A DNA stretch of 64,000 bases from Methanobacteriota archaeon (lineage in GTDB: Archaea; Thermoplasmatota; Thermoplasmata; RBG-16-68-12), in NCBI GenBank assembly GCA_005878525.1, contig VBMB01000135.1, forward strand, positions 39 to 64,038, given 5' to 3'. The notes under the pieces are model-generated. The model was not told the origin of the DNA, ran no database searches, and saw only the letters and a list, made by a program, of their open reading frames with translations. Of the stretch, positions 9,949-58,528 are shown in pieces (within the stretch, counting starts at the first letter, position 1; each line of letters starts with the position of its first letter). The translations under genes and the position numbers were made by a program.

Positions 9949-10278
9949 ATGAGGGAGATGCTCGAGGACCTGATTCGCAAGTTCAACGCGAAGGTCGCGT
10001 CCGATCCCGCGCTCGGAGCGGAGCTCGTCGGCCTCCGGAAGACCGTCCTGATCGAACTGAAGGACGGCACGAAGTATCACTTCACTCTCGCGGATCGGAA
10101 GGTGGCCGGTCTGATCGACGGTGGCGTCGATCCTGCAGACATCACGATTTCCACCGATGCGGACACACTGCGCGGACTCATCCTCCGGGAGATTGGTCCG
10201 TTCAAGGCGTACGCCACCGGCAAGATCAAACTGAAGGGAACTCTCGAGGACCTCGCGCGCTTCCGAAAGTTTTTCTGA
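9949..10278 (+). CDS. SCP2 sterol-carrier-like domain protein
   Basis: 109 aa; matches the SCP-2 family pattern (FTL.D..GLIDGG...DADITISTDADTL..L..G...P..A...GKIKLKG). Confidence 0.65.
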   Translation: MREMLEDLIRKFNAKVASDPALGAELVGLRKTVLIELKDGTKYHFTLADRKVAGLIDGGVDPADITISTDADTLRGLILREIGPFKAYATGKIKLKGTLEDLARFRKFF

Positions 10279-10361
10279 GCTGGCGCCCGCGATAGGTTTA
10301 TCCGACACGTTCCAATGCGGACGGACGACCGCCGGCGCGCCGTGGCTCGATGTGCTGAGGT

Positions 10362-10498
10362 AGCGGGGTGGGGTAGCCAGGATATCCCGTCGGGCTCATA
10401 CCCCGGGACTCCCAGGTCCCCGGTGAGACACCCGGAGATCGATGGTTCAAAAGGGCGGTGAGGAACGGCCTCAGGCCCGGAAAGTCCATCCCCCGCTA
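10362..10498 (+). tRNA. Initiator tRNA-Met (anticodon CAT) with two predicted introns: a canonical one at 37/38 (10401..10429) and a T-loop one at 59/60 (10452..10484)
   Basis: Spliced sequence is AGCGGGG-U-G-GGGU-AGCCAGGAUA-UCCC-G-UCGGG-CUCAUAA-CCCGG-AGAUC-GAUGG-UUCAAAU-CCAUC-CCCCGCU-A. It has an A1:U72 pair, three G:C pairs in the anticodon stem and a near-consensus archaeal initiator 5' half; all stems pair. CCA is not encoded. Confidence 0.6.
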
Positions 10499-10563
10499 TC
10501 GAGTTCCGACGTCGGCGGCGGTCTCTTCGTTGTGGCCATCGTGTCGATTTCGCAAAGTCCGAG

Positions 10564-10591
10564 AAAGTTAACCTCGTTTAAGGTTAACTTT
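10564..10591. promoter_or_regulatory. Perfect 11-bp inverted repeat AAAGTTAACCT-N6-AGGTTAACTTT about 95 bp upstream of KaiC-like gene 1; a near-identical copy sits upstream of the KaiC-like gene at 62186
   Basis: Read directly from the sequence. It is an AT-rich palindrome in a 65% GC background and recurs at 62288..62309. Confidence 0.5.
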
Positions 10592-10636
10592 CGGCTCTCT
10601 CCTGTGACTCATCTTGTGGCCTGATTCTCACGACGG

Positions 10637-10644
10637 AGCTTTTA
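10637..10644 (+). promoter_or_regulatory. Putative TATA box (TTTTATGC) for KaiC-like gene 1
   Basis: AT-rich octamer about 45 bp upstream of ATG 10686; the spacing fits an archaeal BRE/TATA element. Confidence 0.3.
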
Positions 10645-10685
10645 TGCATTATGGGCCGGGTGGTCCGGCGCTCGGCAGGCTTTCA

Positions 10686-11771
10686 ATGGATCGCGTCAAG
10701 ACGGGCGTCGTAGGTCTCGACACGATGCTGACCGGCGGCCTGCTGCCTGCGCGACCGTACGTCGTCTCGGGCCCGACCGGGAGCGGCAAGACGATTCTGG
10801 CCCTCCACTTCCTCCTCGAAGGGCTCCGACAGCAGGAACCGTGTCTTCTGGTCACCCTCGATGAGCCGCCGATCGAGGTCAAGGCGAACATGGCCACGTT
10901 CGGGTGGAACCTGGACCGTCTCAAGATCCTCGATGCGACCCCGGACATCCGCGCGCACAAACGCCAGCGGTCCGTGATCGACGTCGGCACGTCCCTCGAC
11001 GTGCGGGACATGGAGGACGTCACGGAGATCCGCCAGTCCTCCCAGATCCGCGCCCTCGAGGTCACCGTGCACAGCGTACAGAAGATGATCAAACAGGAAT
11101 TCTTGCATCACCTCGAGCGGACGAAGCAGCGATACAAGCGCGTCGTCATCGATTCGATGACCGCGCTGAAGATGTTCGCGATGCAAGGCCAGGACAGCCG
11201 AATCCTGATCCAATCGTTCGTCCGGTTCCTCGCGGAACTGGAGGCGACGACCCTCATCATCTCGGAACGCCTCAACAAGAAGATCCTCGAGACGGAGTTC
11301 TTCCTCGCACGCGGCGAGGTACGGCTCCACAAGTGGATCGACGGAAGTGTGATCCGCCGCGCGATTTCGATCGACAAGTTCCGCGGTTCCTCGTTCGACG
11401 ATCGGATGCATCCAATCTCGATCGGGGACAACGGAATGGTCGTCTACCTGGACGCCCCCGCGCAGACGCGGGTGTCGAGCCCCGCTCCGAAGCCGGGTGA
11501 ATCGCTCCTCGAGACCCGGCTCATCGACGAGGTCTCGAACGTGATTGAGTCGATCATGCGTCACATCGAAGACGCCCATCGACGCCAGGTCCCGATCCGG
11601 GACATCGAGGTGTCGTTGTCTCGAGCAATGCTCGCCTTCCAACGCCGGAACTATCAGAAGGCGATGAAGCTCGCCCTCGCGTGCGACGCGGAAGTCCGAG
11701 AGCGCCTCGCGCAGGCTCCGCCTCCGCCGCCGACCTCGCAGCTGCCGCGTCCGCCCCAGGTGATCCGCTGA
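10686..11771 (+). CDS. KaiC-like RecA-superfamily ATPase (single domain with C-terminal extension)
   Basis: N-terminal IKTG..GLD..L.GG motif (VKTGVVGLDTMLTGG) and Walker A GPTGSGKT. Start set at MDRVKTG; the ATG at 10644 is an alternative. Confidence 0.85.
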   Translation: MDRVKTGVVGLDTMLTGGLLPARPYVVSGPTGSGKTILALHFLLEGLRQQEPCLLVTLDEPPIEVKANMATFGWNLDRLKILDATPDIRAHKRQRSVIDVGTSLDVRDMEDVTEIRQSSQIRALEVTVHSVQKMIKQEFLHHLERTKQRYKRVVIDSMTALKMFAMQGQDSRILIQSFVRFLAELEATTLIISERLNKKILETEFFLARGEVRLHKWIDGSVIRRAISIDKFRGSSFDDRMHPISIGDNGMVVYLDAPAQTRVSSPAPKPGESLLETRLIDEVSNVIESIMRHIEDAHRRQVPIRDIEVSLSRAMLAFQRRNYQKAMKLALACDAEVRERLAQAPPPPPTSQLPRPPQVIR

Positions 11772-12550
11772 CCGCCGCGGCCAAGATCCGGACCGGCATC
11801 CCGGGTCTCGACAAGATGCTGCACGGCGGCTACGTCCCGGGACGGCCGTACATCGTCTCGGGTCCTCCGGGCGCCGGCAAGACGATCCTCGCGATGCAGT
11901 TCCTGCGGGAGGGCCTGGAAGGCGGGGAGCGATGCCTGTTCGTGGCCCTCGAAGAGCCCCCGAACGAGCTGAAGATCAACATGCGCGGATTCCGCTGGAA
12001 CCTGGACGACCTCGACGTCCTCGACGCGAACTCCGATATCCGACGGTTCGAGCCCACGCCGATCCTCGAGATCTCCACGGAGGAAGAGCCCGCGAAGATG
12101 CGAGCGATCGGGGAGCGGATCCGGAAGACACCGGACTTCGAGAGCAAAGAAGTCACGGTCCACTCGTTGCAGCAACTGCTGAAGAACCTGTTCCTGAAGA
12201 GAAACTACGAGCGCGTCGTGATCGATTCGATGACGGCCCTCAAATATTTCTGCATGCGCGAGTTCGAGGAGACCGTCACGACGCAGTCGTTCATGCGATA
12301 CCTCGCGGAGTCGAAGGTCACTTCGCTGCTCACCCTCGAGCTCCCGGAGGAAGGCGAAGTCCCTCCGGAGGCGTTCCTGGCGCGCGGGGAGCTCCGCCTC
12401 CACAAACTCCGGGACGAGACGGGCATCAAGCGCTTCCTGTCCGTCGAGAAGTACAAAGGCTCGTCCCACGACGAGTCCGTGTATCCGTTCGAGATCACGA
12501 ACGCCGGGATCGTGATCAACATGGCCCCGATGGCCGCGACGGCCCACTGA
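11681..12550 (+). CDS. KaiC-like RecA-superfamily ATPase, tandem paralog
   Basis: IRTGIPGLDKMLHGG, Walker A GPPGAGKT, Walker B VVIDS. Only a GTG at 11681 is available upstream of the conserved N-terminal motif, which gives a 91-bp overlap with the upstream paralog; the start is uncertain. Confidence 0.8.
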   Translation: MRRGSPRAPRAGSASAADLAAAASAPGDPLTAAAKIRTGIPGLDKMLHGGYVPGRPYIVSGPPGAGKTILAMQFLREGLEGGERCLFVALEEPPNELKINMRGFRWNLDDLDVLDANSDIRRFEPTPILEISTEEEPAKMRAIGERIRKTPDFESKEVTVHSLQQLLKNLFLKRNYERVVIDSMTALKYFCMREFEETVTTQSFMRYLAESKVTSLLTLELPEEGEVPPEAFLARGELRLHKLRDETGIKRFLSVEKYKGSSHDESVYPFEITNAGIVINMAPMAATAH

Positions 12551-22651: not shown

Positions 22652-22763
22652 GAACCGAGGAATCTTTATTACGACGCAGCCGATGGTCACGGCACTGGGT
22701 GCTGAGGTCGCCTAGTCCGGTGGAGTCCACGCCGACAGTCCCGGAACGGGCTGTTGGCAAAAT

Positions 22764-22872
22764 GCCCGGGTCGCCTAGACCGGTAGGGCGCGGCGCTGGA
22801 GTCGGCCTGAACTACCGCTGCCAGCGACGCCGTGGCTGCAAGGCCTCGGGAGTTCAAATCTCCCCCCGGGCG
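22764..22872 (+). tRNA. tRNA-Ser (anticodon GGA) with a 25-nt intron at the canonical 37/38 position (22802..22826)
   Basis: Acceptor GCCCGGG/CCCGGGC, D-arm GCCU/GGGC, anticodon stem CGGCG/CGCCG found only after removal of the intron, a 15-nt variable arm, T-arm GGGAG-UUCAAAU-CUCCC, discriminator G. Confidence 0.7.
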
Positions 22873-22873
22873 T

Positions 22874-27280: not shown

Positions 27281-27748
27281 ATGCGGCCGGGCCTCGATGT
27301 CGAGACCGTGATCGTCGAGTCGAAGCTCGGCATCCTGCGAGACCGAGTGCTTGTCGGCGGCCGAGAAATCGCGGTTCGCCGGGGTCGGCATGGGTGGCGT
27401 CTCGTCGTCGGAGCTCGCGGCGGGGTCGGCCGCGTCCAGTACGATGGCTGGTGGGACCGACTCACGATTCAGTCCCCGTCCGGCTCGTTGGAGATTCGAT
27501 TCCAGTGGCGCAACACGACGTTTCCTTGGCGGGGGCGCATCTACCGCGTCGGCTCGATGCTCGGCAATCGAGTGACCCTCTTCCGGGGCAGCGAACCGGT
27601 TGCCGTCGGTAAGATCACCTGGGGCGGTGTCCGGTTCGAGATGATGGACCCGGAGTTCATGACATCGAACGGGAGCTCGCACTCGGATTCGGCCTCCGCG
27701 CACAGGCGATTGCCGTGGCGGTCATCGCGGGCGTCCACTGATGCCTAG
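27281..27748 (+). CDS. Hypothetical protein (Trp-rich, 155 aa)
   Basis: The only ORF with protein-like composition in the 530-bp gap between the PHP gene and metG; no recognisable domain. Confidence 0.3.
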   Translation: MRPGLDVETVIVESKLGILRDRVLVGGREIAVRRGRHGWRLVVGARGGVGRVQYDGWWDRLTIQSPSGSLEIRFQWRNTTFPWRGRIYRVGSMLGNRVTLFRGSEPVAVGKITWGGVRFEMMDPEFMTSNGSSHSDSASAHRRLPWRSSRASTDA

Positions 27749-29880
27749 TGCACCCACGTCCCTTCTTTCATGCCCTTGTCGACTTTGAGAGGAGTGCCGT
27801 CCACCGCGAGGGTGGTTCGTGCTTCCCCCTCCGGACTGAGGAAGAGGACGGTTCCATCCGGGCCGACCTGGAGCTTGTACTTCTGAAATTCGGAGAATGC
27901 CAGGATCGGCGCCCCTCGCACCCCGAGGACCTGCGATCCGGCCGGTGCGGCGTCCGGTGGTCGCACGAGGCCGACGTCCGCTTTGTCTTCCCCCGCCAAT
28001 AGCATTCCCCGGCTCTCGATTCCCCGGAGCTTGGCCGGCTCCAAGTTCACGAGGACGACGATTTTCCGACCGCGAAGTTGGTCCTTGGGGTAATTCTTTC
28101 GGATGCCGGCGACGATTTGTCGTCTCTCCCCTCCGATGTCCACTTGGAGGACGTACAGGTTGTCGGCGTTCGGAAGCTCCTGGACATCCGCGATTTGAGC
28201 GACCCGGAGATCGAGGCGGTCCGCGGATGTCTCCTTCGCCTCGCTGAGATCGATCTTGGTGAACAGCGGCTTGCCGACGCGCAGCGCTTGGCCGGCGGGC
28301 ACGTCCTCGAGGGCCCCCTCCCACGTCTGCGAATGGACGTCCGTGTCATATCCGAGCGCCTGCCAGAGACGTGACGAGCTGAAGGGAAGGAACGGGGCCA
28401 TGATGATGGCCAGGGATCGGCTGACCCGCAAGGCGACGTGGAGCACGGTCCCGCAGGCCACGCGATCCTTCTTGACGAGTTCCCACGGCGCCTTCTGGTC
28501 GAAGTACTGATTTCCGAGGCGCGCGAGCTGGATCGCCTCCTTCATCGCGTCCTTCAGGTGAACGTACTCCAGGTTCTGGCCCACCTTGTTCCACTCCTGC
28601 TCGATCGCGCGGATCATCTTCTTGTCCGCGGCATCGAGGAAGTCCGCCGGCGGGACGGCATGGTCGAAGTTCTTGTCCGCGAAGGTCATCGCGCGGTGGA
28701 CGAAGTTCCCGTACACGGCGAGGAGCTCGCTGTTGTTCCGCTGCGCGAAGTCCTCCCACTCGAAGTCCGTGTCCTTGGTCTCCGGCATCGTCGCGACGCC
28801 GTAGTAGCGAAGCTGATCCGGATCGAACCGCTCGAGGAGGTCGGAGAGCCAGACGCCCTTCCCGCGGCCCGCGCTCATCTTCTCCCCGGAGAAGTTCAGG
28901 TATTGCGTGGCCGTCACGTCGTACGGCAGGTCGAGTTTGGCGTCGTATCCGAGGAGGATTGCGGGCCAGATGATCGTGTGGAACACGATATTGTCTTTCC
29001 CGACGAAGTAGTAGTGGCGCGCCTCGGGATCGTGCCAGAAGTCTTTCCATCCATCCGGCTGGTTGCGGCGGCGGTACCATTCTCTCGTCGCGGTCAGATA
29101 TCCCATCACGGCCTCGAACCAGACATAGATCCGCTTCGTCTCGTAGCCGGGAACGGGGACCTCGATGCCCCAGTCCAGGTCGCGGGTGATCGGCCGGTCC
29201 TTCAAGCCCTCCCGGAGCCAGCTCCGCATGAAGGTGAGCACGTGGTGCCGCCAATGTTCTTTGTCTTTCGCGGCCCATTTGGTGAGCGGCGTTTCGAACG
29301 CGCTGAGCCGGAAGAAGAAGTGCTTCGTCTCCTTCGGGATGGGCGTCGTCCCGTGGATCTTGCACTTCGGATCCTTCAGCTCGAACGGATCCAGGAGATT
29401 GCCGCAGTTCTCGCACTGGTCGCCGCGGGCGCGGGGGAAGCCGCAGTGAGGGCACGTTCCCTCGACGTAGCGATCCGGGAGGAACCGCTGGTCCGTCGTG
29501 CAAAAGGGGGAGACCATCACCGCCTCGTAGACGTGGCCTTTCTCCTTCAGCGCAAGGAAGATTTCTTGCACCCACGCCTTATGGTGCGGGTCCGCCGTGT
29601 TCCAGTAGAGATCATAGCGGACGCCGAGCTGCTCGATGTTCTTCAGGTGCAGCGCGTGGTACCGCTCCGCGATGACGTTCGGGGGCACCCCTTCCTCGTC
29701 GGCTCGGACCGTCACCGGGGTGCCGTGCATGTCGCTTCCGCCGACCATGAGGACCTCGTCCCTTTTCATCCGGTGGTACCGCGCGAAAATATCCGCGGGG
29801 ATGAACGTCGAGACCGCGTGGCCGAGATGCCGCGGACCCGACGCGTACGGCCAAGCGACGCAGACGAGGATCTTCGCCAT
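27745..29880 (-). CDS. metG: Methionine--tRNA ligase with C-terminal EMAP/Trbp111-like tRNA-binding domain
   Basis: HIGH-type motif (PYASGPRHLGHA), zinc knuckle CPHCG...CENCG, KMSKS-like motif, C-terminal OB-fold domain. Start at MAKILV. Confidence 0.95.
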   Translation of the reverse strand: MAKILVCVAWPYASGPRHLGHAVSTFIPADIFARYHRMKRDEVLMVGGSDMHGTPVTVRADEEGVPPNVIAERYHALHLKNIEQLGVRYDLYWNTADPHHKAWVQEIFLALKEKGHVYEAVMVSPFCTTDQRFLPDRYVEGTCPHCGFPRARGDQCENCGNLLDPFELKDPKCKIHGTTPIPKETKHFFFRLSAFETPLTKWAAKDKEHWRHHVLTFMRSWLREGLKDRPITRDLDWGIEVPVPGYETKRIYVWFEAVMGYLTATREWYRRRNQPDGWKDFWHDPEARHYYFVGKDNIVFHTIIWPAILLGYDAKLDLPYDVTATQYLNFSGEKMSAGRGKGVWLSDLLERFDPDQLRYYGVATMPETKDTDFEWEDFAQRNNSELLAVYGNFVHRAMTFADKNFDHAVPPADFLDAADKKMIRAIEQEWNKVGQNLEYVHLKDAMKEAIQLARLGNQYFDQKAPWELVKKDRVACGTVLHVALRVSRSLAIIMAPFLPFSSSRLWQALGYDTDVHSQTWEGALEDVPAGQALRVGKPLFTKIDLSEAKETSADRLDLRVAQIADVQELPNADNLYVLQVDIGGERRQIVAGIRKNYPKDQLRGRKIVVLVNLEPAKLRGIESRGMLLAGEDKADVGLVRPPDAAPAGSQVLGVRGAPILAFSEFQKYKLQVGPDGTVLFLSPEGEARTTLAVDGTPLKVDKGMKEGTWVH

Positions 29881-30016
29881 TCGCGGCGGGTCCAAGAAGA
29901 GAGGCTCATTTAAACCATTCGCGGCCGGGGTCTTCCTCCCGTAGAGTGCGGACGGAACCGGTCCTGATTATCACCGCCTGCAAGTCTTGGCGAATAGGTG
30001 ATGGGAGAACACCGCG

Positions 30017-45832: not shown

Positions 45833-46095
45833 GAATGGCGTGAACAATCCCGTATGGTCGCATGAGCGCGTATTTCAGAACTGCAGGCGACGGTGAAGTC
45901 ATTTGAGAGCTTTGAACTCATTCGTTGAAGCCTATGCTCTCTGCCTTGGGCTACCGCGTGCGTCTCGGTACGGTATACGTTATCAGCCTCGATTCCGGGG
46001 TCGGAATTCATTTAAAAAGCCGCAGGCATCGAATCGCGCATTCTACCCAGCGAGGGCCCGCCCTCCCGACAGAGGGACCGGCACCCAGGGGGAAC

Positions 46096-46992
46096 ATGAC
46101 CATGGCGGACATCGAGAAAGTGGCGAGCGGGATTCCCGGACTCGACGATCTCATCGAAGGCGGATTCTGGCCGAAGTCGACTGTCGTCATCCTGGGCTCG
46201 AGCGGGACGGGTAAGTCCACATTCGCGATCCAATTCCTGATGGAAGGCATCGAGCAAGGCGAGCAGGCGCTGTACGTCACCCTGGAGGAACCTCCGGAAC
46301 AGATCATGCGCGAGGCCGACCTGATGGGCTTCGACATGCGCAAGTACTACGAGAAGAGCCTCTTTTTCATCCATCTCAAAGGCCGCAATTTCAAGAAGAT
46401 GATCGAGGAGCAGCTGCCGCAACTCGTCAAGGCGCGCGCGGACTACAACATCAAGACGCGCGTCGTGATCGACCCAATGACGCCGGTCATTTGGGCGACC
46501 GCGGAGAAGCTCGAGCAACGCGAGTTGATCGGCAAGTTGTTCTACACGCTCAAGGAGCTCGGCGTCGTCCTGTGCACCGTCGAGGAGCACGCGAAGCCCG
46601 GGGAGACAATCGGCGAGGACGTGCTCCTGCCGATCTACCTGTCCGACGGCGCGATCCAGCTCGAGTACTATCCGATCGGCGGGGCGTTCAACCGGACCGT
46701 GAAACTCCTGAAGATGCGCGGCGTCCACCACGGCGAAGGCGTGTACCCGTACCTGTTCGCGCGCGGCGTGGGCATCGTGGTCCGCTCGAGTCCGACTCAG
46801 ATCCCCGAGGAGCAGAGCCGGAGCCACGTCAAGACGTTCGACGAGGCGATCAAGACCGCCGAGGCGATGAAGGCCCCTGCCCGCGTGATCGAACGGATCA
46901 AGCGGATGCAGAAGCACTGGGACTACGACTACTCGCCGGAAGAGGCCCTGCAGATCCTGTTCAGTTCGTACGGGTTGAAGCGGGGCGGATAG
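46096..46992 (+). CDS. KaiC-like RecA-superfamily ATPase with C-terminal extension
   Basis: SGIPGLDDLIEGG, Walker A GSSGTGKST, Walker B VVIDP. Start at the MTMADIEK ATG. Confidence 0.8.
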   Translation: MTMADIEKVASGIPGLDDLIEGGFWPKSTVVILGSSGTGKSTFAIQFLMEGIEQGEQALYVTLEEPPEQIMREADLMGFDMRKYYEKSLFFIHLKGRNFKKMIEEQLPQLVKARADYNIKTRVVIDPMTPVIWATAEKLEQRELIGKLFYTLKELGVVLCTVEEHAKPGETIGEDVLLPIYLSDGAIQLEYYPIGGAFNRTVKLLKMRGVHHGEGVYPYLFARGVGIVVRSSPTQIPEEQSRSHVKTFDEAIKTAEAMKAPARVIERIKRMQKHWDYDYSPEEALQILFSSYGLKRGG

Positions 46993-58348: not shown

Positions 58349-58528
58349 CCCGTGGCCCCCTCCTGGCCCTTCGGCACAAAACGTATGACCCTAGCCGGCG
58401 TTCCTTCCGATGCCACCGTGATGATTGAACCGACGCTGATCCGTGATGAATGATGGGCGATCTGAGTGGCCTCGATTTGTCAACGCGGCGCGTCGCGTGC
58501 AGGGATGTTTTAATAGCGAGGTACGCCG

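Follow-up and report, generated by a model that had tools for sequence, protein, structure and literature searches.

Non-canonical and multiple tRNA introns of the bulge-helix-bulge (BHB) type, including introns at 59/60, have been described from Crenarchaeota (especially Thermoproteales), Thaumarchaeota, Nanoarchaeota and ARMAN, and 59/60 is a recognised non-canonical tRNA intron site (PMC4090602). Multi-intron tRNA genes of the Pyrobaculum type were described by Sugahara 2007/2008 (as cited in PMC4090602 and PMC8450103). For Euryarchaeota with an α4 or α'2 splicing endonuclease (EndA), reviews give single introns, at the canonical position only (PMC4090602, PMC5829648). Here, we describe a gene for initiator tRNA-Met, tRNA-iMet(CAU), on contig VBMB01000135.1, of which a 64-kb stretch was analysed (the window). 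We are confident, from the sequence and its relatives, that a soil archaeon of Candidatus (Ca.) Angelarchaeales has in it a functional initiator tRNA-Met gene, probably its sole one, with two BHB introns predicted to be spliced by EndA and RtcB. The type of splicing so predicted (EndA/RtcB, BHB introns) is already known; what is unexpected is the host lineage. The preliminary description of this DNA had named Thermoproteales as the best-known source of multi-intron tRNAs with non-canonical introns, and the literature bears this out (PMC4090602).

Like the multi-intron tRNAs of Thermoproteales and Thaumarchaeota, the gene has two short BHB introns (three in one relative, L045), located at 37/38 and at a listed site (59/60; 20/21 in L045), and its introns were gained and lost among close relatives. 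Both the window and 32 other species have more than one intron in the gene, with one outside 37/38. Unlike those tRNAs, it occurs in a Thermoplasmata order, within Cluster II Euryarchaeota, and its motifs in the window are full or near-full hBHBh', with an outer helix (h) and an inner helix (h'), rather than hBH or HBh'. The relaxed forms hBH and HBh' were considered for the window and rejected, since both motifs keep both bulges and both flanking helices. The other tRNA gene seen in the window, a putative tRNA-Ser(GGA), has a single canonical intron only.

Among known genes, the nearest counterpart is the permuted tRNA-iMet(CAU) of Thermofilum pendens (Chan et al. 2011, PMC3218864), where the same tRNA is disrupted at 59/60 and 37/38. 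The T. pendens gene is circularly permuted, its 3' piece preceding the 5' piece, whereas the gene in the window is collinear and has an ordinary intron at 59/60. The relaxed intron of pre-tRNA-Glu in Methanopyrus kandleri (Kaneta et al. 2018, PMC5829648) is likewise a euryarchaeal exception to the strict canonical BHB rule; but M. kandleri belongs to Cluster I and has a heterotetrameric (αβ)2 EndA without the specific loop, and the second intron in the window is non-canonical by position and structurally almost canonical. Ca. Micrarchaeum (ARMAN-2; Fujishima 2011, PMC3239211), also an uncultivated, metagenome-only archaeon, likewise has tRNA introns that lie outside the anticodon loop. Its introns have been demonstrably linked to a new ε2 EndA architecture, whereas for Angelarchaeales the evidence comes from tRNA genes. 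No report of multi-intron tRNAs in Thermoplasmatota emerged from a limited full-text literature search, and tRNA goes unmentioned in the main text of the papers describing the order Ca. Angelarchaeales.

The gene occupies positions 10362-10498 of the plus strand. It is preceded by an SCP2-domain gene (9949-10278) and followed by a KaiC-like ATPase open reading frame (ORF) that starts at 10614 (TTG) or 10644 (ATG). The preliminary description gave the intergenic gap as 335 bp, which is exact from the SCP2 end at 10278 to the KaiC-like start at 10614, and the sequence that it described at 10362-10498 reads exactly as stated. Exon 1 (10362-10400, plus strand; AGCGGGGTGGGGTAGCCAGGATATCCCGTCGGGCTCATA) holds tRNA positions 1-37: the acceptor 5' strand, the D-arm, the anticodon stem 5' strand and the loop CUCAUA with the anticodon CAU. 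It is followed by intron 1 (10401-10429, plus strand; CCCCGGGACTCCCAGGTCCCCGGTGAGAC), 29 nucleotides (nt) long and at the canonical position 37/38. Exon 2 (10430-10451, plus strand; ACCCGGAGATCGATGGTTCAAA) holds positions 38-59, which are A38, the anticodon stem 3' strand, the variable loop AGAUC, the T-stem 5' strand GAUGG and the T-loop part UUCAAA. Intron 2 (10452-10484, plus strand; AGGGCGGTGAGGAACGGCCTCAGGCCCGGAAAG) is 33 nt long and interrupts the T-loop at 59/60. Exon 3 (10485-10498, plus strand; TCCATCCCCCGCTA) supplies positions 60-73, with U60, the T-stem 3' strand CCAUC, the acceptor 3' strand CCCCGCU and the discriminator A73. The 3' terminal CCA is unencoded; TCG comes next. The splice junctions in the window are unambiguous, as no other cut positions yield the identical spliced product. 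A permuted or split tRNA gene was ruled out, since all three exons (39, 22 and 14 nt) are collinear within 137 nt. Self-splicing group I or group II introns were also ruled out, given intron lengths of 29 and 33 nt and no match to an Rfam intron family.

Joining the exons gives a 75-nt RNA that ARAGORN calls as a perfect cloverleaf tRNA-Met(CAU), so that the cloverleaf proposed after removal of 29 and 33 nt is recovered. When intron 2 alone was removed, ARAGORN -i reported a tRNA-Met with a 29-nt intron at the canonical site. Archaeal initiator tRNAs are marked by A1:U72, three consecutive G:C pairs at 29-31/39-41 and R11:Y24, and they share these marks with eukaryal initiators. The spliced product shows A1:U72, G29-G31:C39-C41, G11:C24 and A73, in both the sequence and the ARAGORN drawing. 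On the unspliced window, default ARAGORN found no tRNA anywhere, and Rfam gave no tRNA match at gathering or permissive thresholds. The lone Rfam match at the locus was Pyrobaculum sRNA 205, on the minus strand and at chance level (E = 1.3). This silence is explained by the introns interrupting the gene, since spliced and intron-less controls were detected: the three intron-less relatives tested (L047, L053 and L054) scored 56-62 bits with RF00005, and a two-intron relative gave no score. The routines of tRNAscan-SE 2.0 would probably call a two-intron tRNA-iMet. The preliminary description had named a conventional tRNA-Met elsewhere as evidence against its proposal; none lies in the 64-kb window.

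To place the gene among its relatives, we aligned SCP2 homologues (the best 120 of 213 scored candidate proteins), which led to 46 species-level genomes, all Thermoplasmata. Both insertions are present at the same two sites, in genes of 135-137 nt directly 3' of SCP2, in at least 33 species-level genomes or metagenome-assembled genomes (SCP2 identity 55-94%, plus L056 with a partial SCP2 match). Nine more distant Thermoplasmata genomes (L047-L055; SCP2 identity 36-51%) carry an uninterrupted 75-nt tRNA-iMet directly 3' of SCP2. In L011, L031 and L034 the locus is truncated. The nine syntenic uninterrupted genes have exactly the predicted junctions, CTCATA-ACCCGG and TTCAAA-TCC. The product predicted for the window equals the syntenic uninterrupted tRNA-iMet of L053 except in the T-stem, and equals uninterrupted metagenome tRNA-iMet genes except at two variable D-loop positions. 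The exact junctions are borne out by the natural intron-less and one-intron alleles. We take the gene anatomy as established, along with the BHB geometry, conservation and covariation given below.

The one-intron alleles came from a metagenome scan that was built for intron-less and short-intron alleles with the same exons and, owing to its gap limit, was blind to alleles with a 32-33-nt T-loop intron only. It returned 94 loci, 83 of them full-length and intron-less, mostly on low-GC marine contigs with a different D-loop; none of the 94 is an intron-less copy with the clade's own D-loop. Two metagenome contigs of 64-65% GC, L107 (428-531) and L137 (2990-3093; both on the minus strand of the locus), share exon 1 with the clade; their only intron, of 29 nt, is at 37/38, and their T-loop, TTCAAATCC (loop UUCAAAU), is intact. 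Both are syntenic with the window (74% identity in SCP2, 68-81% in KaiC and 86% in FtsZ). A rough neighbour-joining tree built from RNase HII, SCP2 and KaiC places them within the two-intron clade, beside RBG_16_67_27 and RBG_19FT_COMBO_69_17, with the intron-less L047 at the base of the clade. The simplest reading would be that both introns were gained at the base of the clade and that the T-loop intron was later lost precisely in the lineage of L107 and L137.

One relative, L045, carries three insertions in a gene of 166 nt (2123-2288 of CAYOUM010000015.1): the D-loop is interrupted by 30 nt at 20a/21, and a 29-nt insertion at 37/38 and a 32-nt one at 59/60 follow. L045 is sister to L043 and L044. 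After removal of all three insertions its sequence equals the exon sequence of L043 exactly, and ARAGORN calls tRNA-Met(CAU). The D-loop intron has a perfect central helix, UAGG/CCUA, and a 5' bulge of 3 nt; its 3' bulge is merged into a 4x4 internal loop. This motif looks relaxed and HBh'-like.

The central helix of the archaeal BHB motif forms between the four nucleotides 5' of the upstream bulge and the four that lie 5' of the downstream bulge; each 3-nt bulge is cut behind its second nucleotide. The precursor from the window has this geometry at both introns. For intron 1, the central helix is CUCA (10395-10398; C32-A35) paired with UGAG (10424-10427), and the bulges are UA↓C (10399-10401) and AC↓A (10428-10430), where arrows mark the predicted cuts. 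Its outer helix is the anticodon stem and its inner helix is a 7-bp intron hairpin. For intron 2, UUCA (10446-10449; U54-A57) faces GGAA (10479-10482), forming three base pairs and the non-pair A57•G, with the bulges AA↓A (10450-10452) and AG↓U (10483-10485). Its outer helix is the T-stem, and its inner helix, GGGC/GCCC, is extended by UGAGG/CCUCA. The junction folding proposed in the preliminary description thus yields a strict BHB at intron 1 and, in the window, a BHB with one A57•G non-pair at intron 2.

Motif counts, like the conservation and covariation results below, refer to the 32 distinct two-intron sequences. A direct motif scan found a strict hBHBh' at intron 1 in 28 of them, the window included. 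At intron 2 the strict form occurs in 13/32, and in 32/32 if one non-pair in the central helix is allowed. The intron nucleotide opposite A57 is U in 13 sequences and G in 19, and the intron nucleotides opposite the invariant U54 and U55 alternate between A and G with pairing kept. For six species, L041 among them, the minimum-free-energy (MFE) fold of the T-arm is the textbook BHB. On average, BHB folds exceed the MFE by 1.4 kcal/mol in the anticodon arm and 2.2 kcal/mol in the T-arm. When the whole precursor is folded, the MFE structure contains the acceptor stem, the T-stem and the hairpin of intron 2. Because it misfolds the 5' half, constrained folds and covariation were used to assess the motifs.

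Conservation is uneven along the gene. Only two of the 75 exon columns vary (99.5% mean pairwise identity), both in the D-loop of exon 1, and exons 2 and 3 are invariant in all 32 sequences. Intron 1 varies in 15 of 29 columns (89.8%) and intron 2 in 26 of 34 (65.4%). Mean pairwise identity is 42% in the 50 nt upstream and 29% in the 50 nt downstream. This pattern fits a strongly selected gene whose insertions would leave the product. In the proposed pre-tRNA structure, 95.2% of alignment cells pair; shifting the partners by 1-3 columns lowers this to 35-61%. Changes on both sides occurred in seven pairs, all within the two intron-internal helices, and compensatory G-C to A-U changes occur in the h' helix of intron 1. 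None of 500 shuffles reached the observed pairing or covariation score. Two introns, with the lengths and the 37/38 and 59/60 positions first proposed, are therefore supported by the spliced product, the BHB geometry, the intron-less orthologues, the loss in L107 and L137, and the much higher conservation of exons than of introns.

Other explanations of the insertions have to be weighed. The 37/38 insertion alone might be spliced, with the 33-nt T-loop insertion kept as an expansion or removed by a route other than EndA. The A•G non-pair in the central helix of 19 of the 32 sequences, window included, would favor such a scenario, as would an α'2 EndA, which is expected here and described as narrow in specificity. 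However, the two 3-nt bulges, the 4-position spacing and both flanking helices are present in 32/32 sequences, the intron side opposite U54 and U55 varies only from U-A to U•G, and the motif is fully strict in 13 species. A retained 33-nt hairpin would also block the D-loop/T-loop elbow, an argument that rests on established tRNA structure, and a functional UUCAAAU is seen in L107, L137 and all intron-less orthologues. We consider retention of the T-loop insertion, or its removal by another route, very unlikely. If the locus were instead a decaying tRNA pseudogene with two insertions, and a conventional tRNA-iMet elsewhere did the work, the silence of standard predictors would be expected, and only 64 kb of the genome were inspected. 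Such decay is at odds with exons that stay near-invariant over at least 33 species while introns and flanks diverge, with intron helices that stay paired through compensatory changes, and with a conserved promoter-like motif. It also sits badly with a metagenome scan that held no intron-less copy bearing the clade's own D-loop, and with the precise removal of the T-loop insertion in one lineage, which would be expected of a gene in use. A pseudogene is thus scarcely credible.

A coding or guide function of the insertions can be practically dismissed. Mechanically called ORFs of 60-63 aa overlap the region (10298-10489, minus strand; 10442-10624, plus strand), but length differences of 1 and 2 nt within both introns would break any frame. 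The guide RNA alternative is modelled on the C/D box sRNA in archaeal tRNA-Trp introns, and a CUGA lies inside intron 2 of some relatives. Introns of 28-33 nt are nevertheless too short for a C/D sRNA, a C box is absent, and the sole Rfam match is the chance-level one given above. Neither a conserved reading frame nor conserved C and D boxes were found across the 32 sequences.

Several points weigh against a functional gene with two EndA-spliced introns. For intron 2, the window and 18 further distinct sequences have the A57•G non-pair in the central helix. By phylogeny, the enzyme expected here is an α'2 EndA of narrow specificity (PMC5829648), which would have to cut the slightly relaxed motif with A57•G. 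The BHB fold of the isolated anticodon arm is not its MFE fold. In Pfam searches, none of the 50 window proteins scanned matched the EndA and RtcB families (PF01974, PF02778, PF01139), and tblastn with the EndA of M. jannaschii, A. fulgidus, M. kandleri and S. tokodaii against all fetched locus DNA gave nothing. Finally, the evidence spans one 64-kb window, and a second, conventional tRNA-iMet elsewhere in the genome is possible.

For the functional two-intron gene, we infer the enzymes, the step order and the expression of the precursor as follows. Transcription from the conserved GCGATAGGTTTATCC element would yield a precursor in which the three exons and two introns lie between a leader and a trailer. 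Anticodon loop nucleotides 32-35 and T-loop nucleotides 54-57 would then pair with the 3' parts of the respective introns, the T-loop helix stacking on the T-stem. EndA would cut both BHB motifs, in each 3-nt bulge behind the second nucleotide, and the three exons would be joined by an RtcB-type ligase. The 75-nt initiator tRNA would be completed by trimming of the ends, addition of CCA and modification of the T-loop. Since intron 2 turns the T-arm into a long hairpin, the D-loop/T-loop elbow would be barred until intron 2 is removed. In this model, excision of intron 2 probably precedes the elbow-dependent steps.

As for the enzyme, relaxed multi-intron tRNAs of the Thermoproteales type call for a broad-specificity EndA, (αβ)2 or ε2, with a specific loop (L1/L2/L3). 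An α'2 EndA has been assigned to all Cluster II Euryarchaeota (PMC5829648), and the homodimeric EndA of Ferroplasma (Thermoplasmata) reportedly cuts minimal BHB substrates (PMC8707768). The near-strict hBHBh' at 59/60 should therefore suit such an enzyme. In view of the A57•G variants and of the extra D-loop intron in L045, EndA specificity may be broadened. In its widest form, such a proposal would have Ca. Angelarchaeales show a Thermoproteales-like gain and loss of tRNA-iMet introns (one, two or three), with an EndA range broadened by a new specific loop or subunit architecture, independently of TACK and DPANN; we regard this as rather unlikely.

The element GCGATAGGTTTATCC (10289-10303, plus strand), which resembles a B recognition element (BRE) and TATA box (TTTAT, 10297-10301), lies 59-73 nt 5' of tRNA position 1. 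This motif precedes the gene in 32/32 distinct two-intron loci, in a flank that is otherwise only ~42% identical. By analogy with the archaeal TATA/BRE consensus, on which this reading rests, the element probably acts as the promoter. Downstream of it, the 5' leader segments GACCGCCGGCG (10327-10337) and GGCTCGA (10344-10350) are complementary to the 3' trailer segments TCGAGTT (10499-10505) and CGTCGGCGGCGGTC (10510-10523), all on the plus strand. In RNAfold, leader and trailer pair to form a long, interrupted stem capped by the tRNA. Other species (loci L012-L046) retain the pairing with different sequences; the nine intron-less relatives and four short-leader species lack it. Compared with shuffles, the duplex energy has a median z of -1.7, which is modest support. 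An unusual maturation route might involve this covarying stem, which accompanies the genes with introns. A BHB within the stem, by which EndA would excise the whole tRNA, was also looked for, and no positionally conserved motif was found by a scan stricter than real introns pass, making this a weak negative.

The host was identified through the SCP2 protein of the window, identical copies of which are encoded on soil-metagenome contigs and in GCA_001919915.1. The ten loci with identical SCP2 (L001-L010) match the window over all 137 nt and are thus uninformative for covariation. GCA_001919915.1 is Euryarchaeota archaeon 13_1_20CM_4_64_14 in the supplement of Diamond et al. 2022, and its GTDB lineage is p__Thermoplasmatota; c__Thermoplasmata; o__RBG-16-68-12, an order named Ca. 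Angelarchaeales (Diamond et al. 2022). By sequence identity, then, the host is assigned to the soil Thermoplasmata, Ca. Angelarchaeales or GTDB o__RBG-16-68-12. The window encodes TBP, RNase P Pop5, exosome Rrp4 and Rrp41, prefoldin, FtsZ and methionyl-tRNA synthetase, which fits such an archaeon. The preliminary description had called the multi-intron tRNA taxonomically informative. This held at the level of the clade, as the two-intron tRNA-iMet behaves as a marker of Ca. Angelarchaeales in the genomes compared; it is no sign of a Thermoproteales affinity.

The methionyl-tRNA synthetase gene (27748-29895, minus strand) lies ~17 kb from tRNA-iMet, a proximity that is probably coincidental. 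Three KaiC-family ATPase genes occur in the 64 kb (at 10644-12547 and 45925-46989, plus strand), and two of them stand in tandem directly 3' of tRNA-iMet, an arrangement kept in relatives. Just 5' of the KaiC-like gene, a perfect 11-bp inverted repeat, GAAAGTTAACC / GGTTAACTTTC, surrounds TCGTTTAA (10563-10592, plus strand). A promoter with a palindromic operator is one possible reading.

A second intron-containing tRNA gene lies at 22763-22873 (plus strand) and was also missed by default ARAGORN and by Rfam. It belongs to class II, its variable arm being long, and has G73. The ARAGORN -i call is tRNA-Ala(GGC), with an intron of 25 nt; judged by eye, it would be tRNA-Ser(GGA), in which CUGG/CCAG and the bulges AG↓U and CG↓A form a strict BHB at 37/38. 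A TATA-like CTTTATTA is found 5' of this gene at 22664-22671 (plus strand). Within 22664-22762 (plus strand), a stretch of ~65 nt repeats part of the 5' end of the tRNA-Ser gene (GGTCGCCTAGTCCGGTGGAG versus GGTCGCCTAGACCGGTAGGG), and no matching 3' half was seen there. The repeat could be a leader, a duplication remnant or part of another disrupted gene. Elsewhere in the window, the segment at 58414-58467 (plus strand) reads GUGAUGA ... CUGA ... GUGAUGA ... CUGA and matches Rfam sR2 with 37.5 bits (E = 1.2e-4), slightly below the gathering score of 42. It is likely a C/D box sRNA.

Since default ARAGORN and Rfam miss the tRNA-iMet gene, genomes of this widespread soil order could seem to be without an initiator tRNA, which would skew completeness and tRNA-complement statistics. 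The alleles with zero, one, two and three introns at one syntenic locus form a clean series for the gain and precise loss of tRNA introns. This natural allele series lets one ask whether intron position and BHB strictness track EndA architecture. In conclusion, a Thermoplasmata order is predicted from its gene sequences to need double splicing, and in one lineage triple splicing, to make the tRNA with which translation is initiated, contrary to the single-intron rule given in reviews.

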